From NCBI GenBank assembly GCA_042852035.1, contig BAAFHK010000001.1:330001-362000 (forward strand): a stretch of 32,000 nt of DNA, read 5' to 3'. Below, piece by piece: positions 2,945-26,372 of this stretch. This stretch comes from Candidatus Saccharimonadota bacterium (GTDB taxonomy: Bacteria; Patescibacteriota; Gracilibacteria; BD1-5; UBA2023). The notes under the pieces were generated by a model that saw only the letters and a program-made list of their open reading frames with translations, searched no databases and had not been told where the DNA came from. Position 1 is the first letter of the stretch. Each line of letters starts with the position of its first letter. A program made the position numbers and the translations under genes.

Positions 2945-2989
2945 AAGAGTCGAGACAAATTCAAAAATGTTTTGACTCTTTTTATTTTC
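2945..2989 (+). terminator. Intrinsic terminator of atpDC
   Basis: AAGAGTC(gagaca) at 2945-2957 pairs with (tgtttt)GACTCTT at 2968-2980, allowing G-U pairs. A 10-nt loop is followed by TTTATTTTCT. Confidence 0.55.
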
Positions 2990-3001
2990 TAGATATCTTT
3001 A

Positions 3002-3020
3002 AAGTGTATATAAAACACTT
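3002..3020. promoter_or_regulatory. Candidate NrtR operator (pncA upstream, distal)
   Basis: AAGTGT-ATATAAA-ACACTT is a perfect 6+7+6 palindrome with a GT-N7-AC core. It belongs to a motif family found only upstream of the NAD genes in this window. Confidence 0.6.
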
Positions 3021-3063
3021 AATAGTAACTGAGCATTAAAGGCTATTAAAAGTAACTTATTAT

Positions 3064-3082
3064 AAGTGTAATAAATACACCT
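3064..3082. promoter_or_regulatory. Candidate NrtR operator (pncA upstream, proximal)
   Basis: AAGTGT-AATAAAT-ACACCT has one arm mismatch and ends 23 nt before the pncA ATG. Confidence 0.5.
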
Positions 3083-3104
3083 TTATTTTTAATATTACTT
3101 TACT

Positions 3105-3713
3105 ATGAATAGAGAAGCCCTTGTTATCGTTGATTTCCATAAGGCATTTGGAAAATTATGATGACTTCCTGTAGCTTGAGCTGAAGAAATTGCTCCAGCA
3201 ATACAAAATCAAATGAATTTAACTCGAACTGCTTCATGACTTATTGTGGCTACACGTGATTGGCATCCGAAAAACACCGTCCATTTTAAAAATAATGGTG
3301 GTCCATGGCCAATCCATGGTGAGGCTTGAAGTCAGGAGTCTGAGTATATCGATGGAATAGATACTCGTATGATTGATCATCATATTTATAAGGGCTATAA
3401 AGACAGCGATGATGGGTATTCTTGATTTGAAGGGGTAGATAAACTCATAGGAAATGCGGAAATGGGTTTTCAAATAGCCTCAGATGCAAGAAGTCTTGAA
3501 CAAATACTTCGTGAGTCAAGCGTACGAGTTCTGAAAATTGTTTGACTTGCTACGGACTTCTGTGTTTTTTCTACAGCTAAAGACGGGAAGGAACTTTGAT
3601 TTGATGTGGAGGTTATACGTTCGGGTATAGCTGCTGTAAATGTTCCAGGCCTTCCAAGTGGTGAAGAAAAATTACGTCAGCTCGCTGATGTGTGAGTAAA
3701 AATTGTTTCTTAA
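3105..3713 (+). CDS. pncA: Nicotinamidase (isochorismatase family)
   Basis: Table-25 ORF of 202 aa with 9 in-frame TGA. It carries ALVIVDFHKAF (catalytic Asp), TRDWHPKNTVHF..WPIHG (metal site) and GLATDFCV (catalytic Cys). TAA stop at 3711-3713. Confidence 0.85.
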
Positions 3714-3716
3714 ATT

Positions 3717-3735
3717 AAGTGTATATAATACATTA
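3717..3735. promoter_or_regulatory. Weaker candidate NrtR operator (pncB upstream)
   Basis: AAGTGT-ATATAAT-ACATTA has two mismatches in the right arm. It abuts a perfect TATAAT at 3734-3739, which lies 8 nt before the pncB ATG. Confidence 0.4.
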
Positions 3736-3747
3736 TAATATATAACT

Positions 3748-5103
3748 ATGAACACACAGTATCCATATACATTCTCAAACTCATTTGCTCATGCACGTGA
3801 TGAGGCAGAAGTTGATAATCTTCTCAATACTGATATTTATAAATTTCTGATGCTTGACTTCATCCTTTCGAAGGAGGAGTATCGAAACATGCGAGTAAGA
3901 TGGAAAATGACCATCCGAAATAAGGATGTTCGTATTGCAGACATCATTCCAGAAACAGCACTCCGAAGTCAGTTCGATGCTACGAAAAACATCCGTGGCG
4001 TAAGTCAGGCAGGACTCTCGTATCTTCGTGGAATGCAGGTAGGGAATCGACCAATGCTCAGAAATGAAACTCTTGGATATCTTTCGGATTTTTCTCTCCC
4101 CGAATATTCTCTCGAAAATGACGGACATGGATGATATACGCTTGAGTTCGAAGGTGCTTGGCCTGACTCTACCCTCTGGGAAATCTACGCTCTCAAGATC
4201 GTCAACAGTCTCTACCTCTACTATTACGCGAAGAAGGCAAAACTCTCTCCGTCAGAGTGGAATGGGGTCATGACGAGAATGTACGGTCGTCTCTATGATA
4301 ATGTGGCAAGTGTAAGGTCAGATCCTCGTATTACCTTCTCAGAATTTGGTACCAGACGTGCGGCAAGTACGGACATTCATAGGCAGGTAAATGCTATCCT
4401 CTCGAGTGATCTTCCAGGTCAATATCTTGGAACATCGAACGTAATGATTTCTATGGAGATGGGAAATGCGAATCCAAAATGAACCAATGCTCATGAACTT
4501 CGTATGATACCAACAGCATTCGAGGATGAATGATGAGCAATTGTCGACAAAATGTATGCCATCGATCGAGAATGGCAGGCACACTTTCCAGAGCTTGGAA
4601 TCCTTCTTCCGGACACGTACGGTTCTTCTTTTTATTTTGCTAATTGCCCCGAGGATATCGCGATGAATCATACAGGATGTCGTGTAGATTCAAAGGATCC
4701 TCTCTTGGCTCTTCCAGAATATCAAGAATTCCTCAGAAAATGGGATATTGATCCAAAAACAAAACTTGCACTTCCGAGTGATGGGCTTACCTATGATGTA
4801 ATCAAAGGAGTCACTGATCGATTCCATGGCATCTTCTGAGTTCTTACGAATGGATGGGGAACTGAACTTTCAAATAATACTAAAGGAACGCTTCCAAAAG
4901 AAAAGGAAAAATTTGGACCATTTGGTTCTATGTCAATCGTTGTGAAGCCTGATGCGGTTTGGCGACCGGACAAGAATGCATGGGTTTCTTGCGTCAAGCT
5001 TTCTGATAATCCAAATAAGGCTATGGGAAGCAAAGAAAGAGTGAAGCTTTTTAAAGAAACATTTTGAGTTGAAGGTATGGAAAGTCAAGAAGTTCGCGTC
5101 TAA
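3748..5103 (+). CDS. pncB: Nicotinate phosphoribosyltransferase
   Basis: 451-aa table-25 ORF that joins the track fragments 3748.., 4270.. and 4552.. through in-frame TGA. It has the NTDIYKFLM (DxYK) N-terminal motif, FGTRRA and GTSN..ANPKGTNAHE. TAA stop at 5101-5103. Confidence 0.9.
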
Positions 5104-5169
5104 AGAAGTCTCTGAATTTGAAATATATTCGATACTGTGATAGACTACCCCTAAATAAAACAAATATAA

Positions 5170-6015
5170 ATGAGTCAATACCACCCAGGAACATTCAATG
5201 AGTGAGCCTGATCTCTTGCGGATACAATTTCAAGATCAGTAAATTCTAATAGATCACTCAACTCAGTAACAAATGCACTACGAAAAATTTATGATCCAAG
5301 ATTTCGAGTTGATGAGTTTGTAAGATATACTTGAGTTGATTCTTTTGTGATTCAAAAGATACAGAATTGGTATCTTATGCAAAGATTGAAATATTCGTAT
5401 GGAAAGCTTCATGATGCAGAAAGCTCACGACTTGTAAATTATTCTCCTGAGGAAGTGTCTCATAGAAATTCCATGAGAACTTGGAGGCTCAATGAAAGAC
5501 ATCAAAAACTCGTTGATGAATTTCAAAGGGACAGTCATTACTGACTAAAAAACTTCGTAGAAATACTGGCAAGATCAATTGTGGAGGAGAAAATCAGATC
5601 CACATGAGTTTACAGAGACGTAAAAGTATATCTTGCAAGTGATGCGGACGATATAGTATCCTGAGTTGATCTTATCGTCGATTGTATTGATCAACGATGA
5701 AACCGTCATCTTATTGGTGTTGATGTGGCAGTTTCTGAGAATTCGCAATATTTGGATGGTAAAAGTGAGTATGAGTCATGTTCGCCCACCGAGTTTCTGT
5801 TCCGAAATCGTTTAGGTCCACGTACCTCCATTCACCGTATCGTATTTGCTCTGAGTCCAAGTGAGGTTGCTCATATGATAGACTTTACTGTTGATTCACT
5901 TATGCAATGAAACCCAGTAACTGCAAAAACTCTTACAGATAAATATTCTACAAAAGATATGCCAGAAGTTTTATACTGAGTTCAGAACTTAATACAAAGA
6001 CTCCTTAAAAATTAA
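5170..6015 (+). CDS. Hypothetical protein (281 aa), same strand and directly downstream of pncB
   Basis: Uninterrupted table-25 frame from ATG 5170 to TAA 6013-6015, joining track ORFs 5347.. and 5725... No family recognised. Confidence 0.55.
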
Positions 6016-6018
6016 TTT

Positions 6019-6204
6019 ATGGAAAATAAATCAACATCTCTACATCAAACTCCTATTGCGCAGAGTATTGCTGATGCATTTAAAAGAAGAAATCAAATGC
6101 GAGTTAATGAGCAGGGTTTAGTTTCTCAGCCGAATAGCGACTCTCTTGCGGTGGTGGCTCATATTGAGCGAGTTTTATCCAATCATGGTTCTACAATTCA
6201 CTAG
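6019..6204 (+). CDS. Small hypothetical protein (61 aa)
   Basis: ATG lies 4 nt after the previous stop, with a true TAG stop. There is no TGA and no recognisable motif. It overlaps the 3' end of the convergent regulator gene by 14 nt. Confidence 0.3.
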   Translation: MENKSTSLHQTPIAQSIADAFKRRNQMRVNEQGLVSQPNSDSLAVVAHIERVLSNHGSTIH

Positions 6205-6943
6205 ATTTGAGGAGTTGTTGTAACAGTTTAAATTGTTTCTCGAGAAAACGAGCGATCATTGGATTCTCTATTATGATAGAGTTTTCCTCACCGAAATCAA
6301 TAAAAGCAACTTTATTTCCGTAAATAGTCATCGTCACATCTTCTTCAAAGGTATCATATTTTTTCGGAATAAGAATGATATCCCTTTCAAGTCTTTTTAG
6401 CTTTGTTAGAGCGGCTTTACTTGAGCTAATAACTACTCGTTCCAGTCGTTTCTTATCTCGTCTTTCCCGGTAATCCTTTGGGAGAAAGCTATTTGATATA
6501 TTCACATCATTTTCTGCGCTTACGCGGTAAAATGTAGCACCAGCAGGAAGGGAATTCACAATATCATCAAATACTCGAGTGACCGCAGGGCGTCATTCCT
6601 CGTAGCTTACGGAGAGATTCTTTCCAAGTTTTTTATAGCTCTTTTGGAGCTCATCGAGAAGTGGTGCATTTCGTTTCTCAAAGTCTCGGATAAGTTCTTC
6701 GATGCGATCGGGGGAAAGAGGACGATAAAAGGTTCGTTTTCCACGAGTGATAGTTGTGATAAGTTTTTCTTCTTCAAGGACCGGAATTCCTCGATAGATT
6801 TCGACTCGGTGGAGCCCGGTTCGTCTCGAAATATCTATAATAGCGGATGTTCCATGTTCGAGGAGATCGAGGTAGATGCGAGCTGTCTTCTCATTTATTC
6901 CAAGCTTCGTAAAGAGCGAGAGAAATTTTTCCATATGAAACAA
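6191..6943 (-). CDS. TrmB-like winged-helix transcriptional regulator
   Basis: Track ORFs 6593..6943 and 6191..6559 are in one frame, joined by TGA at 6590-6592. The N-terminus LGINEKTARIYLDLLEHGTSAIIDISRRTGLHRVEIYRGIPVLEEEKLI is a TrmB-type wHTH. TAG stop at 6191-6193. Confidence 0.7.
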
Positions 6944-7012
6944 ATAATTACAAATAAATTATAATGAGTTTTATTTATATTTAAAGCTTAAAATAATATT
7001 TTAGAATAAAAA

Positions 7013-7028
7013 ATTTCAAATTTGAAAT
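7013..7028. promoter_or_regulatory. 16-bp perfect palindrome, candidate operator
   Basis: ATTTCAAATTTGAAAT ends 5 nt before ATG 7033 and sits in the 89-bp divergent intergenic region shared with the TrmB-like gene. Confidence 0.3.
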
Positions 7029-7032
7029 AAAA

Positions 7033-8085
7033 ATGAGCAGAAAATTCAGGAACCAGTACAGTGCGGAAGCTTTATCACTTACTTTCTCTTCTATGAATTC
7101 CTCTCTCTCCGCTTCGCTTGCTTCGTATCGATCTCTCGAAATCGATGCTCATGTCTCGCTCGATGATGTCCTCTCAAAAATTACCCAGGAAATGGGCGAG
7201 CTTATGGAGGCACTCGAGAATAATGATACTTCTGAGATACAAAAAGAAGCAAAAGATCTCCTCGTGAATCTCCTTTCTGCCTCATCTCGCCTTGGTATCG
7301 GGCTCTTCCCAGATCTCACACTGAGTCGTATCGAGCCACGTGAAATCCCACAAAAAATTGCCATCTTCCATCGGATGGTAGCAGCTATCCGTTCTCGCTA
7401 CTCACGCGAACTTCATCCACCTATTTCCGAAATTCGAAACCTTTTTGATCCCCTCATCGCGACCCTCCTCGATCTCTCAGGAAGTGACTCCCATGAAAGT
7501 GTCGTCACCGAATCCATCCAAAAACTCAGGTCCCGCATCAGTGAATATGTGCCACTCGTGGAACTCAAAGATGCCATCGATGAATATCCTGACTTCCCAA
7601 AACCTGGAATCCTCTTTAAAGATATTTCTCCCATCCTCCGCGATGAATTCCTTATGCGGTATGCGAGTTACGAGATGGCGAAACACGCAAAAGATGCCGA
7701 TGTCATCGCCTGACTTGACGCTCGAGGATTCATCTTCGGTGCTAGGGTAGCAGAAATCCTTGAAAAACCTTTCGTTATGGTACGCAAAAAAGGAAAGCTC
7801 CCAGGAAAAACGAGTGGAGTGGGCTACTCGCTCGAATATGGGGAAAACGCTATAGAAATACAAGATGGAGCTATCGAGCCTGGTCAAAAAGTTGCCATTA
7901 TCGACGATCTTCTCGCCACTGGTGGGACACTCGGTGCTGCTGCCTCACTCGTAGAAAAGGTTTGAGGAAAAGTTTCATCTCTTGTGTGCCTTATTTCTCT
8001 TGATGATCCATTCCTTATGAGTCTTGAGTCTAGAAAATTACTTTCTGAAAGCTATCCAGTAAAAAGCATCTTGCATTATAGCTAA
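7033..8085 (+). CDS. apt: MazG-like all-alpha NTP pyrophosphohydrolase domain fused to adenine phosphoribosyltransferase
   Basis: 350 aa with 2 in-frame TGA. The N-terminal half has EMGELMEAL..(10)..EAKDLL (ExxE..ExxD). The C-terminal half, PKPGILFKDISPIL..G[TGA]LDARGFIFG..VMVRKKGKLPG..YSLEYGENAIEI..VAIIDDLLATGGTL, is canonical Apt. TAA stop at 8083-8085. Confidence 0.85.
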
Positions 8086-8109
8086 TTGTATTTATTATTT
8101 ATTCAAGTT

Positions 8110-9024
8110 ATGAAAACTCTCCTCTCACATCCTCGATTTGACTCCGTTGTCGACTCTCTTGTCGAAAGACATCCGGATCTCTTAAAAAAATGATCGCTTA
8201 CGTATAAAAAATTTCCTGACGGCACTCCAGATCTCTTCATCGATCGAGTAAAGGAGGACATAGAACACCGTGATGTTACCTATATCTGAGATTTTTCGGA
8301 TATGGCTGAACTATTCCCACAGTATGCCCTCGTACGATGAATTATTGATTACTATGCAGACAAAGTTCGAGTCATTGTCCCATATTTTCCTGTTGGTACT
8401 ATGGAACGTATCTCGAGAAAGTGAGAAATTGCTACGGCGAGTTATTTTGCGGATATCCTCTCACATCTTCCGCCTGGACGAAAAGAAAAAACCTCCATTC
8501 ATACCTTCGATATTCATGCGTTGGTCGAACGATTTCTTTTTGATCCATTTAAAGTCAATGCAGAACTCCATACTACAACCTCACTTCTTGAGCTTCCGCC
8601 AGGTGCAGTAATAGCATTTCCAGACGATGGCGCAGCTAAGCGATTTAAGGAAAACTTCCCCGAAAATCATGATAAAGTTATCTGCCTGAAGGTGCGAGGA
8701 GAAGGAAATAAACGAACTATCACGATAAAAGAAGGAAATCCTGAAGGGAAAGATATCTATATCGTCGATGATCTCATCCAAACCTGAGGTACTCTCCTTG
8801 AGGCTGCGAATCTTCTGAGATCCAAATGAGCTAAAAGTGTTCATGCCTTTGCTCCACATGGAGTATTCCCACTTGATTCACATATGACTCTTGCACCAGC
8901 ACTCGATGGACTCATCGTCACTGATACACTTCCGGTGAATGTTGACCGTGCAAAATCTCTTGATTCGATGAGGGTTCTCTCGATTGCTCCGCTGGTTGAA
9001 AAAATCCTCCTGAGAGAATCATAG
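8110..9024 (+). CDS. prs: Ribose-phosphate pyrophosphokinase (PRPP synthase), divergent
   Basis: 304 aa with 7 in-frame TGA. It carries KKFPDGTPDLFI, VRVIVPYFPVGTMER (in place of the usual PY..YARQDR) and the PRPP loop DIYIVDDLIQT[G]GTL. TAG stop at 9022-9024. Confidence 0.78.
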
Positions 9025-9071
9025 GATGCAACTTATCATATTTTCGAAATGTTTTCTATTGCATAAATACT

Positions 9072-9104
9072 GAAATTCCTTAGTCTAGTAGGGAATTTCT
9101 TTCT
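9072..9104 (+). terminator. Possible terminator/attenuating hairpin after prs
   Basis: GAAATTCC (9072-9079) pairs with GGAATTTC (9092-9099) around a 12-nt loop, followed by TTTCT. It abuts the next ATG. Confidence 0.3.
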
Positions 9105-10088
9105 ATGTTTTGAGACCTTCACTTTCATTCCACCAGATCTGATGGTATCGTGACTCCCGAGTGACGTATTGAGCAGATGAAAGCTCTCGATCCTCGTAGA
9201 GAGTGACTCTGGGCACTTACCGATCACGACCGATTCTCCTCCGATTTCGTCATGCGAGCTCGAGAAGCTGGTTTCGATACCTTCTCTGGAGCAGAAATAT
9301 CTGCACGAAGTGAATCACTTGGAATATCTCTCCATGTGACATGCTATACTCCTGAACTTTCGTCTCATTTTTCTAGTCTTGTCGAGGGAATTGTTCTCGG
9401 TCGAAAGAAGAAAATCGCAGGTCAAATCGAACAGCTTGCAAAGAAGGGGTTTCAAATAAATATTAAAGATTTCTCTCTCTGGATTGCTCTCCAAGGAATG
9501 TCTCCAGATATGGCATCGAACTGGCATATCGCGAGTTATCTCTGGAGGGATGAATCATCATCGAAAGCATCTCTTGCTCTCGCTGAGTCGTTGACCAACG
9601 GTCGAGTCCATGATAAAGAGTCCTTTATGAAAGAATGCTTGCGTGCTACAGGTGAGTATCGTGAAGTTGGATATTTTGTCTCAGATCCCTATGAGCCAAG
9701 CCTCGGAAAGATTGCAAAAATGGCAGAAGGGGAGTGAGCCCTCCTCTCGATCGCACATCCGAATTTCTCATTCGGGAAGACACTCAAACGTCTCGGAGCC
9801 AGAGCTCGTGAAGACCGATACCCGATATTTCGAGATGTCATCGCCCCGAAGATAGCAGAGGAGTGAGTGAAGAATTTCGAGCTCAATGCACTCGCTTCAC
9901 CACCGTGGATCGGGGCACTCGAATCGGTTTCGCGAAGAACCCGTGGGATAGTTACTTATGGCAGCGATAATCATGGCCTCGAACTTCCTGATGATAAACA
10001 TGGCATTATCGGCCGACAGAACCCACTTCTCACAAGAGAGATGGTGGAGAAAGTGCGGGATAGAATGAGAGAGATGGTGGTGGGGTAA
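9105..10088 (+). CDS. PHP-domain metal-dependent phosphoesterase (TrpH/YciV-like)
   Basis: 327 aa. MF[G]DLHFHSTRSDG is the PHP N-terminal signature; AHP and GSDNHG motifs occur later. Track fragments 9252.. and 9867.. are in the same frame, joined by TGA. TAA stop at 10086-10088. Confidence 0.8.
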
Positions 10089-10132
10089 TATTTTAATTTT
10101 GACAATTTTAAATAAATATATATTCATTTCTA

Positions 10133-11011
10133 ATGAAAAACTGAAATTTTCCACCAAATGATTGAGTTCTTAGAGAAAATCTAGGGAGAATGAAAATTGG
10201 AAAACCTAATCCTGAAATTACTCAAGTTGCGTGAGAAGCTCCATTAATACATGTAACAACATTAGAACGAGCATTAGGCATTATAGATTCTTGAACTATA
10301 GATTCTTGCGCAAAATCTGAGCGAAAATGAAGACATTTCGATCGATTAGCAATAAATACTGATAAACTAGATAGAAAATATTGATTAGATAGATATGTCT
10401 TCACTACACTTTGAAGAAATGCATTACAAAATGGTTGAAGCGTATCTTTTGTGTTTCGACCGCAAAAATTACTTGAATGAAGATGAGTAGTTGCTTCTTT
10501 GAAGGAGGTTTGAGACTACTGAGCATTAGTTTCACAAGAAGCAGAGTTCATATATAGAGAGGTGACTTGAAATGACCCAGCAAAAATGAATAGAATTGCA
10601 ATGAATAGATTTTTAGAGTGATTAGTTCGTTGAGCAGACTTTAGAAGAGTTTTTGCATGGTTTTTGCAGCGAAATTTTACAAAGTATCTTGAATATTTAA
10701 CAACACTTACTTATCCAGGAGAAGAACTTGTTCACAATGACATCTGATCTACTAATGTATGGGGATGACCGCAGGTGATGATTCCAGAATCAATAAACCT
10801 TGATGAACTCGCTTACATTGTCACGAGAACAAGAGAAGAAAGCGAACTTATCCTGAGGATGGCTGAGAAGAAATGATTGAAAACCCCTACACATTCTCTG
10901 GAAGAAGAGCTTCACTTATCTATGTTTGATAGTACTCCATGAATTCAAACAAGCGGTCTTATTCAGGCTATGAATATCTTAGTTAAAGACTTATATTTTG
11001 GTGGCAAATAA
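10133..11011 (+). CDS. Hypothetical protein (292 aa; alternative start 10190)
   Basis: The frame is completely invisible in the standard-code track. Under table 25 there is no TAA/TAG from 10112 to 11008 (TAA at 11009-11011). The sequence looks protein-like (..APLIHVTTLERALGIIDSGTI..RYVFTTLGR..GGPQVMIPESINLDELAYIV..). No family assigned. Confidence 0.6.
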
Positions 11012-11051
11012 TTTTTTATTTTCTTTTGACTTCTTTTTAAAAAAGAATATA

Positions 11052-11070
11052 TAGTGTATATATAACACTT
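11052..11070. promoter_or_regulatory. Candidate NrtR operator (nadE upstream, distal)
   Basis: TAGTGT-ATATATA-ACACTT. The flanks (..GTGTATATA.AACACTTAATAG) are nearly identical to the distal pncA box. Confidence 0.6.
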
Positions 11071-11119
11071 AATAGAAAAATACGAGCCAACAGATGGCTC
11101 AATATATTTCCTCATTAAT

Positions 11120-11138
11120 AAGTGTTATAAATACAATT
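11120..11138. promoter_or_regulatory. Candidate NrtR operator (nadE upstream, proximal)
   Basis: AAGTGT-TATAAAT-ACAATT has one arm mismatch and ends 25 nt before the nadE ATG. This is the same two-box layout as at pncA. Confidence 0.5.
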
Positions 11139-11162
11139 ATTATTTCTTCACCATTTCAAATT

Positions 11163-12059
11163 ATGGAAGCAGTACAAAGCATGGAGGGACTCAAGATGGC
11201 ATCTCGTAATCTTGATTATGCACAGGTAGAGGCTTCACTCGTGGCACAACTCCGAGCGTATGCAGAGTGAGCAAAACAACGATGATATGTTGTTGGAGTG
11301 AGTGGTGGAGTCGATAGCGCGGTTGTCTCGACTCTTGCCGCGAAGACAGGACTCCCGCTCTATGTCGTCGAGATGCCGATACATCAGAGAGAGGAGGAAG
11401 TGAGTCGTTCGAGTGAACATATTGCTTGGCTCCAGGAAAACTATCCGAATGTCGTAGCATGGAAAGAGGATCTCGGAGATGTGTTCGACCTCATGCAGGC
11501 AAAAATCGAACGCGTTGCGAGTGTCCTCGGAGCACCGAATGGGACCAAACTCGCCCTCGCCAATACTCGCTCACGACAGCGTATGGAATGGCTCTATGCG
11601 ATGGCGGGATCACTTGGGCTCCTCGTCGCAGGTACTGGGAATAGGGTCGAAGACTATGGTATCGGATTTTTCACGAAGTATGGTGATGGAGGAGTCGATG
11701 TAAGTCCAATCGGAGAACTCTACAAATCAGAAGTCCGAGCCCTCGGTCGACATATGGGAGTGAGGCCATCCCTCACTGAAGCGGTCCCGACTGATGGACT
11801 CCATACCGATGGTGCAACCGATGAAGACCAGATTGGTGCCACTTATGATGAGCTCGAGTGGGCAATGGTCGAACATGATGAGTTTGCTAGTATGTGAGCC
11901 TCGAATTTTGTATCTACTGATGCTTCTACTAGTCTCGAATGGGCAAAGAGAACCTTCTCTGGTCGAGCGGCTGAAGTCATGTCTACCTACCTCGGTCGTC
12001 ACTATCAAAATGCTCATAAGATGGCGATGCCACCAGTATTTGCACTCCCAGTATCATAA
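11163..12059 (+). CDS. nadE: NH3-dependent NAD+ synthetase
   Basis: 298 aa with 3 in-frame TGA. It carries the PP-loop VVGVSGGVDSAVV plus ..ANTRSRQRM.., LVAGTGNRVEDYGIGFFTKYGDGGVD and PIGELYKSEVRALG. TAA stop at 12057-12059. Confidence 0.92.
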
Positions 12060-12065
12060 AACTTT

Positions 12066-12680
12066 ATGCACAAATCCCCTATCGTCATGTATGGTTGAGC
12101 CTTCAATCCTCCACACATGGATCACATCTCGAAGGAAGGAATCGTCGGAAGACTTCTCGAAACCGTGGCAGAAAAGATCCTCATCATCCCGACGGGGGAA
12201 CGAAGTGATAAATGATATCATGGGATTTCTTATCATAATCGACTCGAGATGCTCCGTCTCGCCACTGAGGATTTCCGTGGACGAGTCGAAGTGGATACGG
12301 TTTGTATGGATGGATATATCGACTCCACAACTCTTGCTCAGGCGAGATATCTCAGACGAGAATACGGTTATGATGTTCCTCAGGTATTTGGTGCTGACGT
12401 AGCAGTTCATATGAGGGAATGGGATAGAACGGGATTTGTAGCAGAAAAACTCCCAAAAATATTTGTTACTCGTCCAGGTTTTGAGATTACGTGAGTCCAA
12501 AATTACCAAACTCTTCATTTTGTTTCACGAGGATTCTCAAGTACTGATATTAGAAAAGATGTTGCTCGAATCCTTGCCTGAAAAGAAAATATTGAAGCCC
12601 TCCGAAAAAAAGTCCACTCAAAAGTACTTGATTACATCCTTAAAAATAACCTCTTTAACGAAGTTCCCCATGCAGAATAA
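12066..12680 (+). CDS. nadD: Nicotinate-nucleotide adenylyltransferase
   Basis: 204 aa. MYG[TGA]AFNPPHMDH matches GxFxPxHxGH, and the C-terminal FSSTDIR is the ISSTxIR motif. It starts 7 nt after nadE. TAA stop at 12678-12680. Confidence 0.88.
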
Positions 12681-13269
12681 TTACACCCTTCATAAACCAA
12701 CTACAATTCCTGTAACTCAACTTTCTCTCAATAGAATAAGCCAAAGAGGGAAATGGATGCAGGTGATGGAACAAACCCTTCGTCGAGTGCATGATAAAGA
12801 AATATTTCAGTGGGAAGTGCTCTCGAAAAAACCGGCTGTTACCGTACTTCCTATCACTCCTGCGAAGGAGCTTATCCTCATCGATCAGTTTCGCTATCCG
12901 ATCATGGACTGGGAACTCGAGTGCCCAGCAGAGACTATGGATCAGGAAGGGGATACTCCTGAGTGAGCGGCAGTGCGAGCCCTCAGTGAGGAGATAGGAT
13001 ATCGGTGTGAACGCATCCAGAGGGTGGCAACCTATGCTTCCTCATGAGGAACTACGGATGAACTCTCGTATGGATTTCTTGCTCATGATTGTACTCCACT
13101 TGAGGGTGGTCACCATCGAAGTGAAGATGAGATAATCCGTGTGAATCATGTCCCTCTCTCTCATATCGAACACTTTCTCGACACACGTATCCGTGACGGA
13201 CAAATTCTCAATCCCAAAATGGATGGACTTATTGGGAGATGTCTGAGAAATATTTACTCCTCTTCATAA
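12670..13269 (+). CDS. Nudix hydrolase (ADP-ribose pyrophosphatase-like by context)
   Basis: 199 aa. ATG 12670 overlaps the nadD stop by 11 nt. The Nudix box remnant reads GDTPE[G]AAVRALSEEIGY. TAA stop at 13267-13269. Confidence 0.78.
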
Positions 13270-13307
13270 GAACTTCATCTGAGAATACTCTCTGATGCAA
13301 TCATTAT

Positions 13308-13337
13308 AAAAAAGGTGCCCCCGCGTGAGCGGGGGCA
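13308..13337. terminator. GC-rich bidirectional intrinsic terminator
   Basis: A6 (13308-13313), then TGCCCCCGC (13316-13324), loop GTGA, then GCGGGGGCA (13329-13337). Read on the minus strand it is a 9-bp GC stem followed by a T-run, ending the island operon. It lies between convergent genes. Confidence 0.7.
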
Positions 13338-13444
13338 TGAGGGTTTTGTGCTCAACGCCACACATGCAGCCCTACGGGTGCATGGGGAACTCAGGTCAAG
13401 TCTCAGACTCGAAAGAGTTATTTATCGGAGAGACACAGGTGTGG

Positions 13445-13999
13445 TCAACCCCCGGGAATGGGGGCTCGCTTCTTCGTCTTGAACGATCCTTCGGTTGAAT
13501 CGTCCGTGACTGGTTTCAGGATCTCATCCAGGTTGCTCATGCGCGGGAAACCGAAGATGCCCGCGACGGCACCGCTCGGAAAGGTTGCGAGGAACGTCTT
13601 GTACTCGCGACCCCGATCGATGAGTCCAGTCTGGGCGGCGCGGAACTGTGCCAGGCCTGATTCACCGATCGTGACGATCTTGAGCTGGAGCTCTGCCGAA
13701 ACGTTCGGATAGGTCTGGCCGAGCCAGAGCATCATGGCGCCTTGGCCCGTCTTGCCCTGCCAGCCGTTCGTGGTCGCCGTGACCATCTCGCGGAGCATGT
13801 CACGGTACTTCTTCTCACCGAGATTGGCGGCCTCGAGGGGCCCATAGTAGGCGTTTGCCATCACGTTCTGGTTGTTGTCGTAGGCAGCCTTGATGGCTGC
13901 CTCATAGCGTTGGGCTGTGTTGTACGTCATGATCACGTACAGTACAGCGACGAGGAGCACAGCCACGATGCCCATGATCCATTTGGTAGATGTCTTCAT
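13445..13999 (-). CDS. LemA-like membrane protein (standard-code coordinates)
   Basis: 184 aa from ATG 13999, which has GAAGGA 9 nt upstream; the track's TTG start is at 14020. It has an N-terminal TM helix (WIMGIVAVLLVAVLYVIMTYN) and a C-terminal FPSGAVAGIFGFP resembling the LemA FP..A..FGF motif. It stops at TGA 13445-13447; under table 25 it would extend 9 codons to TAA 13418-13420. Confidence 0.65.
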   Translation of the reverse strand: MKTSTKWIMGIVAVLLVAVLYVIMTYNTAQRYEAAIKAAYDNNQNVMANAYYGPLEAANLGEKKYRDMLREMVTATTNGWQGKTGQGAMMLWLGQTYPNVSAELQLKIVTIGESGLAQFRAAQTGLIDRGREYKTFLATFPSGAVAGIFGFPRMSNLDEILKPVTDDSTEGSFKTKKRAPIPGG

Positions 14000-14012
14000 T
14001 TGACGCATTCCT

Positions 14013-15272
14013 TCATTCAAGTGATGCCTCGATGAGGCGGGAAAACAGGATGGACATGATCAGGCAAAAGGCGATGACCAGAGGGTAGAGCCACCATGGG
14101 AGCACAATCCCCCATGACAGGTACTCAAAGGTTTTCATCTGCCGTCTTTCCCAATCTGCTTGGACTCGATCTCGGATGACCGTCATGAGTTTTGGATCGT
14201 CGAGACTGAGTACTTGAAGCTGATCTCTCAGATTGATGCGGATTTCTGGCTTTACCGACCAGAAATCTATCACATCGACCCATTCAATCTTCGGGAAGTT
14301 TATCGAGCCAACGACGATTGTCAGCTGATTTTTCCTCCCGTGGATCCAGTAGGCGTCAAGCGCTGTGGTGAATTCACGACTTGCTTCATCGACCACATAG
14401 ATTACGACATTCACCTCTTTCGAGGGGCCGAATGATCCGTTGAGTCTATTGAGTTCAGCTTCAATTCGTTGCTTCCATTCCGATGGAACTTGGACTCCTT
14501 TCGTAATGACTCTGTGACTCATCCAGGGGCCAATACCCGCTGGGTGTTCCACGATGGATGGCACTCTTTCGAGCTTTCCGAGGTATGGTTTTGCCACCTC
14601 GGCTGAAGTCTGGTACAGATTGTTCCCAGCGAGGATGTAGTTCACTACAGGTTTTTCATAGGTGACATAGAGCTCACTGCTCTTTCCGCCTATGTAGTCC
14701 GTCCTGAACTTCCTACCGTCACCGATACTGCATTGGTCAAAATTGCTGTTCGGAACTTGCCTTTCATTCTTGAGTTCGGTTACGAGGTTTCGGTAGTTGG
14801 TGCTACCTATCCGATGAGTGCTCCCATCGGAAAACTCGATCTTGAAGACATCAGGATGGTGATTGTCGCAGTAGGTGTTGGTTACGCTACTGGTACAGTT
14901 TCCATCTTTGTCACGCCCAGTACAGGTTGTTTCTGTTCTGATGCTTGTATAGGATTCTTCCCAAGCTCCTCCGATGGCTTGGGCGTTGAAGTTGCTCTTG
15001 TCTGCAATACCAGTGGTGTAGAATACACCAACGGTGAAGTAGACGGTGATGAATGCTGGCCAAAGAAAAATGAATGGCCAACCCGTGCTGATTTGCTTAT
15101 ATTTTTTCAACAAGTAGTTACCCACTGGAACTGCGACGAGCAGTGCCCAGAAGGTTACTTGGTGAATGGTGATTTTCATTGTCACCAAAAAAGCATTCTC
15201 AAGGTACCAGATGGGACCAATAAGGATGCTTCCTACAAGCAATATCAGAGCTATGGTTACTCTCTGATCCAT
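14013..15272 (-). CDS. Polytopic membrane protein, 419 aa, unknown function (standard-code coordinates)
   Basis: Intact in the standard-code track. AAGGAG (15277-15282) sits 4 nt before the ATG. It has about 4 N-terminal TM helices, a Cys-containing central domain, and a segment VNVVIYVVDEASREFTTALDAYWIHGRKNQLTIVVGS faintly reminiscent of TPM domains that often accompany LemA, followed by a C-terminal TM helix. It stops at TGA 14013-14015. Confidence 0.65.
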   Translation of the reverse strand: MDQRVTIALILLVGSILIGPIWYLENAFLVTMKITIHQVTFWALLVAVPVGNYLLKKYKQISTGWPFIFLWPAFITVYFTVGVFYTTGIADKSNFNAQAIGGAWEESYTSIRTETTCTGRDKDGNCTSSVTNTYCDNHHPDVFKIEFSDGSTHRIGSTNYRNLVTELKNERQVPNSNFDQCSIGDGRKFRTDYIGGKSSELYVTYEKPVVNYILAGNNLYQTSAEVAKPYLGKLERVPSIVEHPAGIGPWMSHRVITKGVQVPSEWKQRIEAELNRLNGSFGPSKEVNVVIYVVDEASREFTTALDAYWIHGRKNQLTIVVGSINFPKIEWVDVIDFWSVKPEIRINLRDQLQVLSLDDPKLMTVIRDRVQADWERRQMKTFEYLSWGIVLPWWLYPLVIAFCLIMSILFSRLIEASLE

Positions 15273-15513
15273 GTTGCTCCTTGTAGAAAAGGCGAGACTG
15301 TTAAGGTTCGTAACCGTTTGTCTGCTTTCCGTTTCAAGTGTGGTACTTCTGAGAGGGTATTTGTCTCGGAAGGTTATTTGACCATCTACCTGACGTACTT
15401 GCTAGGCTTAAACTGATTATAAGTATAAAAATTAGTTGTCAATACAATTTAATATAAAAATGTCAATATATAATTTTATGACTTTTTTTAGGATTTCAGG
15501 TTTTCAGTATAAT

Positions 15514-15533
15514 AAGTGTAATACTATACACTT
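15514..15533. promoter_or_regulatory. Candidate NrtR operator (autoregulatory, abuts nrtR start codon)
   Basis: AAGTGTA-ATACTA-TACACTT has perfect 7-nt arms. The spacer between AAGTGT and ACACTT is 8 nt rather than 7. It ends 1 nt before ATG 15535. Confidence 0.6.
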
Positions 15534-15534
15534 T

Positions 15535-16230
15535 ATGTCCACACTTCATCCCACCTATACCGAAGATATCTTTAATCTCTCGATCCCAGTACTTGCAGTT
15601 GATATCGTTCTTTTTACTCTCTATAAAGACCAACTGTGTGTCGTCCTCGTACCAGGACGAAATGAATGGGCAAAAGGAAAACTCACGCTTCCTGGTGGAA
15701 TTATCGGACGTAGAGAAACTCTTGAGGAGGCGGCTGATCGCATCCTTTATCGAGATACGAATATAAAAAATGTTTATAAAGAGCAGCTTTATACCTTTTC
15801 AGCCCATGGTCGAGATGATCGATGAGATGTAGTGTCATGTTCATATTATACCTTGGTTTGAACTCGAGAATTTCTCTCTCATATTGATCTCACGAAGGTT
15901 TCTCTCATGCCGTATAAAAATATTTCCCGTGAGACAGTTGCTTATGATCATGCTGATATTATCCAGTATGCTTATCAGCGACTCAAGTGGAAGATGGAAT
16001 ATACTGATGTTGTAAAAAGCATTCTCCCTGATCGTTTTACTCTTCGTGAACTCCAGGAGGTATATGAAACGATTTTTGATAAACCCTTCGACAAAAGAAA
16101 TTTTCGTAAAAAAATCCTTTCCCTTGACCTTATTGAAGAGACGAGTGAATTTGATACCGAGAACTCTAAAAGACCTGCAAAACTCTATCGATTCTCTGAA
16201 AAGGAACTCAAAATAATCGGAATTCTCTAG
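15535..16230 (+). CDS. nrtR: NrtR-family transcriptional regulator (Nudix-like domain + C-terminal winged helix)
   Basis: 231 aa with 2 in-frame TGA joining track ORFs 15436.. and 15907... The Nudix box is degenerate, GGIIGRRETLEEAADRILYRDT, with the REUxEE glutamates lost. The C-terminus DRFTLRELQEVYETIFDKPFDKRNFRKKILSL..RPAKLYRF is the NrtR wHTH pattern. TAG stop at 16228-16230. Confidence 0.85.
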
Positions 16231-16232
16231 TT

Positions 16233-17510
16233 ATGATATATATATTTTGAGGAGCTTTTGATCCGCCACATGTTGGACATACTGCCATCTTGAAGAGTCT
16301 TCTCGCGAAAAAACATCCAGAAAAAATTATCATCCTTCCATCGAGTGAGCGTGATGATAAGAAGTACAGCGTGAGCGATGAACATCGACTCGCAATGCTT
16401 GATATTTTTGTGAGCGAACTCAATGATTCACGAGTTATTTTAGATGATTATTTTGTAAAATATTGGAAGTGAGAAATGATTACGAAGGATGTTGATTTTT
16501 ATGTCCAAGAGAAATATGGGGCAGATATTGTCCATGTATTTTGAAGTGATACGATTTCTTGGATGAATAGCTGGGATAGCGAACATTATGCAGCAAGAAA
16601 GATACGGAAATTATTCGTTCCGAGAGTGACTGAAGGTGGCAGTCATTGCGAGGAGCGGAACGACGAAGCAATCCAGGAACAATATAAGGATTCTTCTTCC
16701 TTCCTGGATCGCCACGCTTTGCTCGCGATGACGGAGCACGGGAAAATAGATAATTTCGAGCTTTTCACTGACTGTCATATCCCAGCAATTTCCTCGACAG
16801 AGCTTCGAGCTCTGATACCAGATTATACCGGGCTTAAGGAGTATTATGAAGAGCAACCAAAATTTATTATCCCAGGTCTCTCGAAAAGAATTTCTCAGTA
16901 CATTCTCGAAAACAGACTCTATCGACCAAAAACCAATAAAAAGCCAAAAGTTCTCGTACATGTGTGTTGTGGTCCTGATGTGACTATGCCGATTATGGCA
17001 CTTCGCGATGAATATGAGGTGATTTGTTTCTGGTACGACCCAAATATCCAACCAAAAGAAGAACATGATAAACGCTATGATGCTTTCGTGAAGGTCTGTG
17101 AACTCGAAAATGTTCCTTTTATTAAATGAGCCTACGATGTCAAGCACTTCTTCACTCGAATTAAAGGGCTCGAATTCACTCCTGAAAAAGGAGAGAAATG
17201 TACGAATTGCTATGATATGCGTATGTATGTCGCGGCAAAACTCGCGAAAAAACTCAAAATCCCATACTATACTTCTTCGCTCAATACGAGTCCCAAAAAA
17301 GATCTCGAAAAACTCTTTAAAATCGGATATGAATATGCAGAAAAATTCGGGATAAAATTTCTCGATATCCCATTTCGAAAAAAGTGAGGATTCGAAAAAT
17401 CGGTAGAATATACGCATGAAAACGACATCTACCGACAAAATTATTGTGGATGTATCTACTCAATCAGAGAAGGGGGAGAGAGTGAGATGAAGGGGAAGAT
17501 GGTTGGGTAA
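16233..17510 (+). CDS. Fusion: NadD-like nucleotidyltransferase + QueH (DUF208) epoxyqueuosine reductase
   Basis: 425 aa in a single table-25 frame (track ORFs 16290.. and 16563.. joined by TGA). The N-terminus has IF[G]GAFDPPHVGH and later ISSTELR. The C-terminus has VLVHVCCGPD, FWYDPNIQP, CTNCYDMR, SSLNTSPKK and IYRQNYCGCIYS, the QueH Cys pattern. TAA stop at 17508-17510. Confidence 0.85.
16642..16732. repeat. GC-rich imperfect inverted repeat embedded in-frame in the NadD-like domain
   Basis: The left arm is GTCATTGCGAGGAGCGGAACGACGAAGCAATCCAGG (16642-16677). The right arm is CCTGGATCGCCACGCTTTGCTCGCGATGAC (16703-16732). The termini GTCATyGCGAG and ATCCAGG are complementary. It encodes ..GSHCEERNDEAIQ..LDRHALLAMTE.. 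and accounts for a ~35-aa insertion relative to the nadD paralog at 12066. Confidence 0.5.
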
Positions 17511-24789: not shown

Positions 24790-25416
24790 ATGAGCTCTCA
24801 ACTCGAAACATGACAACGTCAGGAAACCCTAGATCAAAAAAAGGGAAGACTTGATTTTGACTTACCGGCTAATGGGCAGTGAGGATCATCACGAGTCGAA
24901 AGGGCTTTTGCTGATATCTCATCAGAATTGGGATCAAAGAATGCATGAGAAAAATATAATGTTCAAGATATCTGAGAGGCAATATCGAAGCGCTTTGATG
25001 CTTCAATAAAGCAAAAAACCCAAAACCTGAATCCAGATGAAAAAGCCGAGCTTCTAAAAGTGAAGCAAGAAATACTTTCATCACTTATTTGAAAAAACCC
25101 AAAAGAAATGCTCGAAGAGTTCGCAAATCTCCGAGATAAACTCTATGGAATTATAGCGGCTAGCGATGGAAAATCATGACTTAAAGACAAGAAGCTCGAC
25201 CAGGCTCGACAGGAACAAGTAAAACAGGAAGAAACAAAAAAAGATGCATTCGAAAGATTTCAGGATCTTTTAAACACGAGTGAAGAAAGAAGACTTCAAG
25301 AAGATGCAAGGAGACGTAATGAATTACAAGCAAAACAAATTGCAGAAAAAAAGGCCAAATTATGAGATCAAACTGAGGCTCTTGCGGCACTTGAGTGACT
25401 CAGAACTTTGGCTTAG
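24790..25416 (+). CDS. Hypothetical coiled-coil protein (208 aa)
   Basis: Table-25 frame from ATG 24790 to TAG 25414-25416, with 8 in-frame TGA. It is K/E/Q-rich and has no recognised domain. Confidence 0.5.
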
Positions 25417-26372
25417 TGAATTTTTACACTTTCAAGTATTTCCCTGATTATTTCATCGGGTGCTATATTGTCTGCAATAGACTCGTAGCTTCTTCCGATT
25501 CGATGTCTCAATACATCATAAGATATATACTTTATATCATCTGGAGTCACATAATCTCTTCCATCCAAAAGAGCGCATATCCTTGATCCATCTCTGAGCG
25601 CTAGTCAGGCTCGTGTGGATGCACCGTAGGAAATATTATCATTTTTTGCTCTTGTTGCTGTAAGTATATCTCAAATGTATTCATAAATATGATGATCGAT
25701 ATGTATTGCGTCAACAATAAAATTTCGCATCTCAAAGAGTTCCTCAGGTTTTATAGGGGATTGGTGACGACTTCATTTTTTTTCATTTTGATTTTTTGAT
25801 GTCTTGGAAAGGATTTCTATCTCATCAGACTGGGTTGGATAATCCAAAAGAATCTTCATAAAGAATCTATCAAGTTCAGCTTCTGGTAGAGGATATGTAC
25901 CCTCATGATCAAGTGGGTTTTCTGTTGCAATCACAAAAAATGGATCTGGAAGTGAAAATGTTTCTAGACCAATGGTGACCTGTGATTCTTCCATGGCTTC
26001 GAGAAGTGCGGATTGAACCTTTGGTGGAGTGCGATTTATTTCATCAGCAAGGAGGATATTGGTAAAGATAGGTCATTTACGAATCTCAAATCTCCCAGTT
26101 TGGGGACGGTAGATTTCAACTCAAGTAAGATCACTTGGAAGGAGGTCGGGAGTAAATGAAATACGCTTAAATTCGAAACCAAGTACTTCTGCAAGGGTTT
26201 TTACAGTCTTTGTTTTCCCTAGTCCAGGTACTCATTCAAGGAGTATATGTCCTCAGGAGAAAAGGGCAATTATTATTTTACGTATGAGGCTCTTTTGTCA
26301 GACAATAGTCTGTCCAATTTCTGATTCTAGAGAAAGGAGAATTTCTCTTAATGATTGAAGGTGAGTGTTCAT
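25413..26372 (-). CDS. MoxR-family AAA+ ATPase
   Basis: 319 aa. It carries IV[G][14 protein letters not shown][G]GHILLE[G]VPGLGKT (Walker A), ILLADEINR (Walker B) and [27 protein letters not shown] stop at 25413-25415. Confidence 0.9.

Follow-up and report, generated by a model that had tools for sequence, protein, structure and literature searches.

What controls the genes for NAD (nicotinamide adenine dinucleotide) salvage in a reduced bacterial genome with its own genetic code? As far as we know, few regulons of transcription factors have been described in the mostly uncultured Patescibacteria, the candidate phyla radiation (CPR). The question is raised here by a stretch of 32,000 nucleotides (nt; the whole stretch is hereafter called the window) from Candidatus Saccharimonadota bacterium, a member of Gracilibacteria (assembly GCA_042852035.1, contig BAAFHK010000001.1, positions 330,001–362,000). 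An initial annotation, made from the letters alone, described six palindromes of the form AAGTGT-N7/8-ACACTT in front of pncA (two), pncB (one), nadE (two), and nrtR (one), and read them as an NrtR regulon for NAD salvage. All six are located where they were described. Judged from sequence evidence, these boxes very probably serve as operators for the NrtR repressor whose gene lies at 15535–16230.

Six Palindromes of One Family

The five boxes with a 7-nt spacer (N7) fit AGTGT-N7-ACACT with 0–1 mismatch. Their palindrome consensus is 21 bp long, TAAGTGTA-N5-TACACTTA, and has the core GTGT-N7-ACAC. Most NrtR motifs show 21-bp palindromic symmetry with a GT-N7-AC core (Rodionov 2008, PMC2330246). 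The core named in the initial annotation is thus present in the boxes, and they match the family palindrome.

The leaders of pncA and nadE share one layout. Their distal boxes have the common flank GTGTATATA[A/T]AACACTTAATAG, the distance from distal to proximal box is 62 bp for pncA and 68 bp for nadE, and that from proximal box to ATG is 23 nt and 25 nt, respectively. These values reproduce those given before. The pncB operator overlaps two TATAAT hexamers, one inside the box (3724–3729) and one across its end (3734–3739).

Specificity of the Motif

The assembly consists of 1.30 Mb in 3 contigs with 37% GC, and its genes were called with an iterated codon-usage caller. Taken literally, AAGTGT-N7/8-ACACTT is matched exactly at two places (3002–3020 and 15514–15533), compared with an expectation of 0.00. 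When one mismatch to AGTGT-N7-ACACT is allowed, every match in the window belongs to one of the five N7 boxes, and the only exact match with an 8-nt spacer (N8) in the window is the nrtR site. Genome-wide, there are two exact AGTGT-N7-ACACT and one exact N8 form; all three are sites described above.

A symmetrised scoring matrix of 21 columns was built from the five N7 boxes. They score 21.3–25.0 bits, and the runner-up position in the genome scores 15.1. Matrix scores of training sites are circular, and cross-validation was therefore used. The leave-one-out ranks are 2–5 among 1,296,541 positions. A matrix from the pncA and pncB boxes alone puts the two nadE boxes at ranks 4 and 5 among 1.3 million positions, and a matrix trained on nadE ranks the pncA and pncB boxes 2, 4, and 5. 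The N8 box of nrtR was outside the training set; with half-site matrices separated by one additional central base, it tops the other matches with a +1 spacer by 7.6–9.6 bits, depending on the half-site length.

The initial annotation had held that the motif stands only before NAD genes, and that a similar density elsewhere would speak against the regulon. The genome matrix scan did not find such a density, and the boxes occur nowhere else in the 1.3 Mb. This named test therefore favours the finding. The wider targets that had been predicted are seen in part: pncA, pncB, nadE, and nadD belong to boxed units, and boxes at prs, niaP, and pnuC are not seen in this genome. In particular, there is no box before the MazG-Apt and prs genes (7033–9024).

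Weaker matrix matches of 11–15 bits were considered as further operators and rejected. One lies inside a giant gene; others precede genes for an acyltransferase, a PfkB kinase, a YfiH-type protein, a DsbA-like protein, and proteins without a Pfam match. Because none of these is NAD-related, such matches are taken as A/T-rich promoter noise. A look-alike with a 6-nt spacer, TTAGTGAATTTTTACACTTT at 25413–25432, is the best match with a −1 spacer in the genome (16.7–18.6 bits). It lies between convergent gene ends, is not counted as an operator, and probably arose by chance.

The NrtR Protein and Its Probable DNA Contacts

The 231-aa protein encoded at 15535–16230 had been described as a Nudix-like domain followed by a winged helix-turn-helix, and both parts are found. 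The C-terminal winged helix matches PF21906 NrtR_WHD (E 3.9e-26, 91.4 bits, cut-off 27). The N-terminal part has a Nudix fold (Pfam NUDIX, E 4e-5, 24.1 bits, cut-off 21.1) and aligns to the structures 5BS6 and 3GZ5. The best NCBIfam match is NF050029, 'ADPR responsive transcriptional repressor NtrR' (E 3.1e-38, 131.6 bits). The Nudix signature GX5EX7REUXEEXGU is perturbed in GIIGRRETLEEAADRILYRDTNI, where RI replaces RE, RD replaces EE, and N replaces G. A perturbed, non-catalytic signature is typical of most NrtR members (PMC2330246).

Among proteins in PDB, the closest match is AraR of Bacteroides thetaiotaomicron (BtAraR, 1.5e-35), and NrtR of Shewanella oneidensis (SoNrtR) is also matched (3.2e-25). 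One of the BtAraR operators validated by electrophoretic mobility shift assay (EMSA), AAGTGTAAAAAAGACACTT, is exactly AAGTGT-N7-ACACTT, and recognition of GTGT is defined by Lys179, Arg180, Asn181, Lys184, Lys204, and Arg205 (PMC4666351). All six base-contacting residues are identical in the NrtR of the window (in DKRNFRKK and SKRPAKLY) and invariant among its family-level orthologues. The conserved contacts together with the matching AraR operator form the strongest available argument, short of experiment, that this NrtR binds the boxes.

The positions of the boxes also agree with what is reported for the family: they stand 5' of genes of NAD metabolism, and nrtR is part of the same gene cluster. 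NrtR sites lie over promoters or between the promoter and the start codon, tandem sites are functional, and known regulons include #nrtR-pncA-#pncB-nadD-nadE (PMC2330246).

Conservation among Relatives

The genome analysed here (G000) was compared with 40 related genomes (G001–G040), and genes and boxes were mapped in the NAD loci of those relatives that have NrtR; L-numbers below denote individual loci. At least 13 related Gracilibacteria genomes carry boxes at the same gene positions. Two are retained before pncA, one before pncB, and two before nadE, in front of either a short or a long form. Boxes are also retained before nrtR and, where nadD-Nudix heads its own operon, before these genes. 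In leader alignments, the boxes are conserved islands in diverged flanks. The distal operator (O1) of pncA is kept in G002, G004, G005, G008, G012, G015, G018, G022, G023, and G029, and its proximal operator (O2) is likewise kept in relatives, as are both nadE operators. The box in the pncB slot is seen in G002, G004, G015, G018, G023, and G029.

Whole genomes of relatives were searched with a pattern that has an A/T-only spacer and allows up to one mismatch; at two mismatches, the matches are swamped by background. Five NrtR-positive relatives contain 24 matches versus 7 for a reversed-pattern control, and 11 NrtR-less relatives contain 5 versus 5. The matches in relatives concentrate in the NAD loci, and all four in G004 fall within 8.4 kb.

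NrtR orthologues are found in 13 of the 40 relatives. pncA is present in 11 of these 13 and strong NadE matches in 12, and neither is seen in any of the 27 others. Among these 27 are 6 of the 11 further genomes from the same genus. Because NrtR, NadE, and PncA are absent together, most relatives seem to be without NAD synthesis or salvage. The NAD module thus seems, from gene content, to act as an accessory unit that is present or absent as a whole. In a sample of 401 Patescibacteria genomes, 21 encode NrtR_WHD.

Promoter Layout and Proposed Mechanism

The relation of the boxes to the predicted promoters suggests how they could act. The −10 hexamer of the nadE promoter extends into the left end of the distal box. 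The TTGAC(A/T) of the pncA promoter is conserved in the alignment of relatives' leaders. Such a −35 hexamer lies 18–24 nt 5' of the distal 21-mer in all 18 two-box leaders (11 genomes). In the nadE leaders it is 18–19 nt 5' of the box in 7 of 8, and 23 nt in G022. The proximal operator lies 55–68 bp downstream of the distal one, most commonly 62 bp, and 92–149 bp downstream in G022 and G029. A second promoter 3' of the proximal boxes was looked for, and the genomes showed no −10 at a consistent position. The TATAAT of nrtR is kept in 7 of 9 aligned genomes; it is TATACT in G018 and AAAAT in G002. The transcription starts and operon structure used below are predictions from these elements.

Two observations concern the 3' part of the leaders. 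The distance from the proximal 21-mer to the ATG is nearly fixed per gene type: 18–21 nt for pncA, 22–23 nt for short nadE, and 11–12 nt for long nadE. The sequence in this interval (3083–3104 and 11139–11162 in the window, and the equivalents in relatives) is not conserved.

An NrtR dimer would recognise the 21-bp palindrome via its winged-helix domains. The distal operators abut or overlap the −10 of a predicted sigma-70-type promoter, TTGAC(A/T) and TAnnnT separated by 16–18 nt. Because the distal operator covers the expected transcription start, NrtR bound there would exclude RNA polymerase from pncA or from nadE-nadD-Nudix. The position at the −10 and the expected start therefore makes repression the likely mode of action. 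The proximal operator, 62–68 bp downstream, might provide a second block, as a roadblock or by cooperative binding. At pncB, the single operator would fill the pncA-pncB spacer over the TATAAT-like hexamers. At nrtR, the operator lies 3' of TATAAT, and only 1 nt separates its end from the ATG; this implies autorepression with a very short leader, and the following nadD-like/QueH gene would probably be repressed with it. The Nudix-like domain, with its catalytic signature lost, would act as the sensor. As in characterised NrtRs, ADP-ribose (adenosine diphosphate ribose), the product of NAD cleavage, would free NrtR from DNA and derepress salvage and synthesis. Both the binding itself and the direction of regulation are inferred.

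Effector and Alternative Explanations

Several observations weigh against a standard, ADP-ribose-responsive NrtR circuit. The equivalog cut-off of NF050029 is 400 bits, which the protein with 131.6 bits does not reach; by its score, it is a family-level relative outside the curated equivalog set. The nrtR operator has an N8 spacer and deviates from the N7 rule of the family, and the promoter scan found no −35 for nrtR. The protein is closer to the arabinose-sensing AraR than to the ADP-ribose-sensing SoNrtR. In the alignment with SoNrtR, Lys76 corresponds to Asp74 and Arg41 to Gly41 (an Arg is one residue along). The effector is uncertain because the protein is nearer to AraR and far under the equivalog cut-off. 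ADP-ribose is the effector that we somewhat favour, by analogy, because Arg96 stands at the position of SoNrtR Arg98, Asn43 is kept, and an ADP-ribose-pyrophosphatase-type Nudix gene belongs to the predicted regulon. Arg98 of SoNrtR binds the phosphate of ADP-ribose, and the corresponding residue is Gly in AraR (PMC4666351).

The boxes could also be NrtR operators that respond to something else: NAD as a co-repressor, dinucleotides of the type of nicotinic acid adenine dinucleotide (NaAD) or NAD phosphate (NADP), or a sugar as in AraR. The circuit would then perform end-product repression, and a breakdown product would not be its inducer. Among solved homologues, the arabinose-responsive BtAraR and not SoNrtR is the best match, Corynebacterium NdnR of the NrtR family responds to NAD (PMC4666351), and NaAD, NADP, and reduced NAD (NADH) at 100 µM also released SoNrtR in EMSA (PMC2330246). 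The loss of register at Lys76 and Arg41 points the same way. However, the nucleotide cleft is filled in AraR, where a Gly replaces the phosphate-binding residue that is Arg96 here; Asn43 is conserved, the regulon includes the ADP-ribose-pyrophosphatase-like gene, and it contains only NAD genes and zero sugar genes. A different effector is less likely, but NAD-type ligands are a serious alternative.

Other explanations leave NrtR out. A TrmB-family protein is encoded inside the NAD cluster (6191–6943, minus strand), between pncB and prs, and its closest orthologues adjoin MazG-Apt/prs in G002, G005, and G008, so that a neighbouring regulator might bind the palindromes. Its distribution argues otherwise. 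TrmB paralogues exist in 31 of 41 genomes, many of them without NrtR, NAD genes, or the motif. In G004 and G023, the box set is complete, yet their TrmB paralogues are just 33–39% identical and lie elsewhere in the genome. A box stands at the start of nrtR itself in nearly all NrtR-positive genomes, and the motif equals an operator that has been validated for an NrtR-family homologue whose contact residues are the same. The TrmB neighbour was rejected as the binder on its distribution among relatives, and we give it very little probability. It is equally improbable that the palindromes act as RNA hairpins of the leaders, in stability, attenuation, or translation, and not as protein-binding DNA. 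Each box can be folded into a stem of 6–8 bp, the predicted 5' untranslated region contains the proximal boxes at a conserved distance to the ATG, and a separate leader hairpin exists between the boxes. However, the arms are conserved as sequence (AGTGTA), and their mismatches are uncompensated: ACACCT, ACAATT, and ACATTA face an intact AAGTGT. The distal boxes would be only partly transcribed, because they overlap the −10 and the transcription start, and an Rfam scan of the window gave no family at gathering score.

Leader Hairpin and Spacing of the nrtR Operator

The order in the leader module of about 130 bp is promoter, operator, terminator-like hairpin, and operator. In 13 of the 15 pncA and nadE leaders, the two operators enclose a hairpin with a GCCA/TGGC core; the mean z-score is −2.4 in folds of each sequence against its shuffles. 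RNAalifold found no consensus structure for the inter-box regions, since loop indels broke the alignment. The hairpin loci in relatives are L059, L062, L063, L065, and L066, often with a T-rich tract behind. The place of the hairpin is taken by a different stem in G002 nadE and G012 pncA, and in the pncA leader of the present genome it has decayed to a weak remnant at around 3031–3043. An attenuator and an element stabilising messenger RNA are both candidates for its role.

The nrtR operator has N8 in G000, G004, G005, G007, G008, G023, and L053, with different spacer letters, and N7 in G018, in G002, and in the more distant family (upstream regions L002–L009, L053, and L074). The N7 operator of G002 carries a symmetric change in both arms (AAGCGT...ACGCT).

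It can be imagined that the circuit is graded by operator geometry, in which N8 would make a deliberately weaker nrtR site, the duplicated leader modules of ~130 bp would use roadblock-enhanced termination, and the NAD cassette would be all-or-none in otherwise NAD-auxotrophic Gracilibacteria. If the N8 part were true, NrtR would set its own level differently from that of its targets. If the roadblock part were true, NrtR at the proximal operator might enhance termination at the hairpin. Taken as a whole, this scheme is speculative and we consider it unlikely.

Genes of the Predicted Regulon

The window is legible only when TGA is read as glycine (translation table 25), and the genome is of Gracilibacteria type and 1.3 Mb in size, which bears out the reduced, recoded CPR genome of the initial annotation. 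The Preiss–Handler route proposed there also stands: the boxed genes are pncA, pncB, nadE, and nadD, in addition to nrtR itself. The features are listed in Table 1.

Table 1. Predicted regulatory elements and genes of the putative NrtR regulon (positions in the window)
Feature	Position	Strand	Description
Promoter P1 of pncA	2972..2999	+	Promoter scan: TTGACT, 16-nt spacer, TATCTT; −10 ends 2 nt 5' of distal box
pncA distal operator O1	3001..3021	.	AAAGTGTATATAAAACACTTA; 25.0 bits; leave-one-out rank 2 genome-wide; box 3002-3020 AAGTGTATATAAAACACTT, perfect AAGTGT-N7-ACACTT
pncA proximal operator O2	3063..3083	.	TAAGTGTAATAAATACACCTT; 24.0 bits; 21-mer ends 21 nt 5' of ATG; box 3064-3082 AAGTGTAATAAATACACCT, 1 mismatch
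pncA, nicotinamidase	3105..3713	+	Pfam Isochorismatase 1.3e-15; code 25, 9 in-frame TGA
pncB operator	3716..3736	.	TAAGTGTATATAATACATTAT; 21.3 bits; in 34-nt pncA-pncB spacer; box 3717-3735 AAGTGTATATAATACATTA, 2 mismatches, both in right arm
pncB, nicotinate phosphoribosyltransferase	3748..5103	+	Pfam NAPRTase and NAPRTase_N
MazG-Apt fusion and prs	7033-9024		No box in front
Promoter P1 of nadE	11026..11055	+	Promoter scan, 10/12 matches: TTGACT, 18-nt spacer, TATAGT
nadE distal operator O1	11051..11071	.	ATAGTGTATATATAACACTTA; 22.2 bits; box 11052-11070 TAGTGTATATATAACACTT, 1 mismatch
nadE leader hairpin	11084..11100	+	GAGCCA-ACAGA-TGGCTC between both nadE operators, then T-rich tract; terminator-like match
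nadE proximal operator O2	11119..11139	.	TAAGTGTTATAAATACAATTA; 22.4 bits; 21-mer ends 23 nt 5' of ATG; box 11120-11138 AAGTGTTATAAATACAATT, 1 mismatch
nadE, NAD synthetase, short NH3-type form	11163..12059	+	Pfam NAD_synthase 2.6e-40
nadD, nicotinate-nucleotide adenylyltransferase	12066..12680	+	Pfam CTP_transf_like; tblastn orthologues in relatives
Nudix hydrolase gene, ADP-ribose pyrophosphatase-like	12670..13269	+	Pfam NUDIX 1.6e-11
−10 of nrtR	15508..15513	+	Perfect TATAAT, directly abuts nrtR operator
nrtR autoregulatory operator, +1 spacing	15513..15534	.	TAAGTGTAATACTATACACTTT; AAGTGT-N8-ACACTT; ends 1 nt 5' of ATG; box 15514-15533 AAGTGTAATACTATACACTT, perfect arms, N8
nrtR	15535..16230	+	Nudix-like effector domain with degenerate Nudix box and C-terminal winged helix; 231 aa
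nadD-like/QueH fusion	16233..17510	+	Pfam CTP_transf_like and QueH; 2 nt 3' of nrtR

The best NCBIfam match of pncA is nicotinamidase/pyrazinamidase (1.2e-21), under the equivalog cut-off. The Nudix gene at 12670–13269, absent from the initial annotation, overlaps the end of nadD by 11 nt and is the last gene of the predicted nadE operon. It has weak NCBIfam matches to NudE, YffH/AdpP, and ADP-ribose diphosphatase, and is homologous to the Nudix gene that relatives carry between nadD and nrtR. The gap from the Nudix gene to nrtR is 27–100 nt in G002, G004, G023, and L053, and 2.2–2.6 kb in G000, G005, and G008 (13270–15512 in the window; L064 4177–6380; L067 5100–7693). The insertion between the two genes lies just 5' of the promoter and operator of nrtR, both of which are kept.

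The nadD-like/QueH fusion is probably co-transcribed with nrtR from the same operator. It follows nrtR by a few bases in this genome and in G002, G004, G007, G008, and G023, and because it stands directly behind nrtR across relatives, it is a probable NrtR-controlled gene. In L053, the fusion is ~570 nt downstream of nrtR, and in G004, the nadD-like part has an additional insert of ~165 aa.

In several relatives, a long nadE, presumably glutamine-dependent, replaces the short form (L059 6234–7851; L060 6902–8521; L061 12383–14001; L064 7925–9549). It stands behind the same two-operator leader; the regulated slot is kept and the enzyme form is swapped. prs lies directly 3' of pncB only in G004 and G023 (L059 3713–4642; L060 11911–12822), and probably belongs to their regulons because of this position. 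In the present genome, prs is behind the MazG-Apt fusion, without a box in front.

Relation to Known Systems

The regulon is small, clean, and testable: one repressor, six predicted operators, at least 13 related genomes to compare with, and a homologue with a DNA co-crystal. The split among relatives, between a regulated Preiss–Handler pathway and genomes without NadE, PncA, and NrtR, bears on the dependence of episymbionts on their hosts for NAD. No paper joining NrtR with Gracilibacteria or CPR was found among the top-ranked results of a literature search.

NiaR (YrxA) and the enterobacterial NadR also repress genes of NAD salvage or synthesis via palindromic operators. They belong to unrelated families; the NadR operator is TGTTTA-N6-TAAACA, and the effectors are niacin and NAD. 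Nothing in the window points to either of them; the genome was not searched for them.

BtAraR (PDB 5BS6, 5DD4, and others; PMC4666351) is ~35% identical to the present NrtR over 203 aligned residues and has the identical DNA contacts (K, R, N, and K in the recognition helix; K and R in the wing). Its tandem operators are 3 or 42 nt apart, and the gap here is 41–47 nt. In contrast, BtAraR senses L-arabinose and controls arabinose utilisation, and only NAD genes are targeted here. Its nucleotide cleft is filled by Gly89, Phe36, and Leu67, which align with Arg96, Asn43, and Asp74. The filled cleft and the arabinose targets of the AraR branch are thus not seen in this NrtR; the operator core and the DNA-recognition residues are common to both.

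SoNrtR (PDB 3GZ5, 3GZ6, and 3GZ8) belongs to the same two-domain fold family, and the equivalents of its Arg98 and Asn43 are present. It is a repressor released by ADP-ribose, with tandem operators before prs-nadV. Its operators belong to another sequence group, its targets are those of salvage II, and its Lys76 and Arg41 are out of register here.

The closest parallel is given by the NrtR regulons for NAD described by Rodionov et al. These have the Nudix-like domain with a degenerate signature and the winged helix, the 21-bp GT-N7-AC palindrome located at promoters or immediately 3' of them, tandem sites, the targets pncA, pncB, nadD, and nadE, and a site before nrtR. The present case differs in its lineage, a Gracilibacteria branch of Patescibacteria with code 25. 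It also differs in the N8 nrtR operator of a subclade, the hairpin between paired operators, the ADP-ribose-pyrophosphatase-like Nudix and nadD-like/QueH genes in the regulon, and the NCBIfam score below the cut-off. Because the circuit is as the NrtR model of 2008 predicts, it extends a known system only: it is a known regulon type in a new lineage, with no new mechanism. What is new beyond that template is the N8 operator of nrtR, the leader hairpin, and the all-or-none NAD module.

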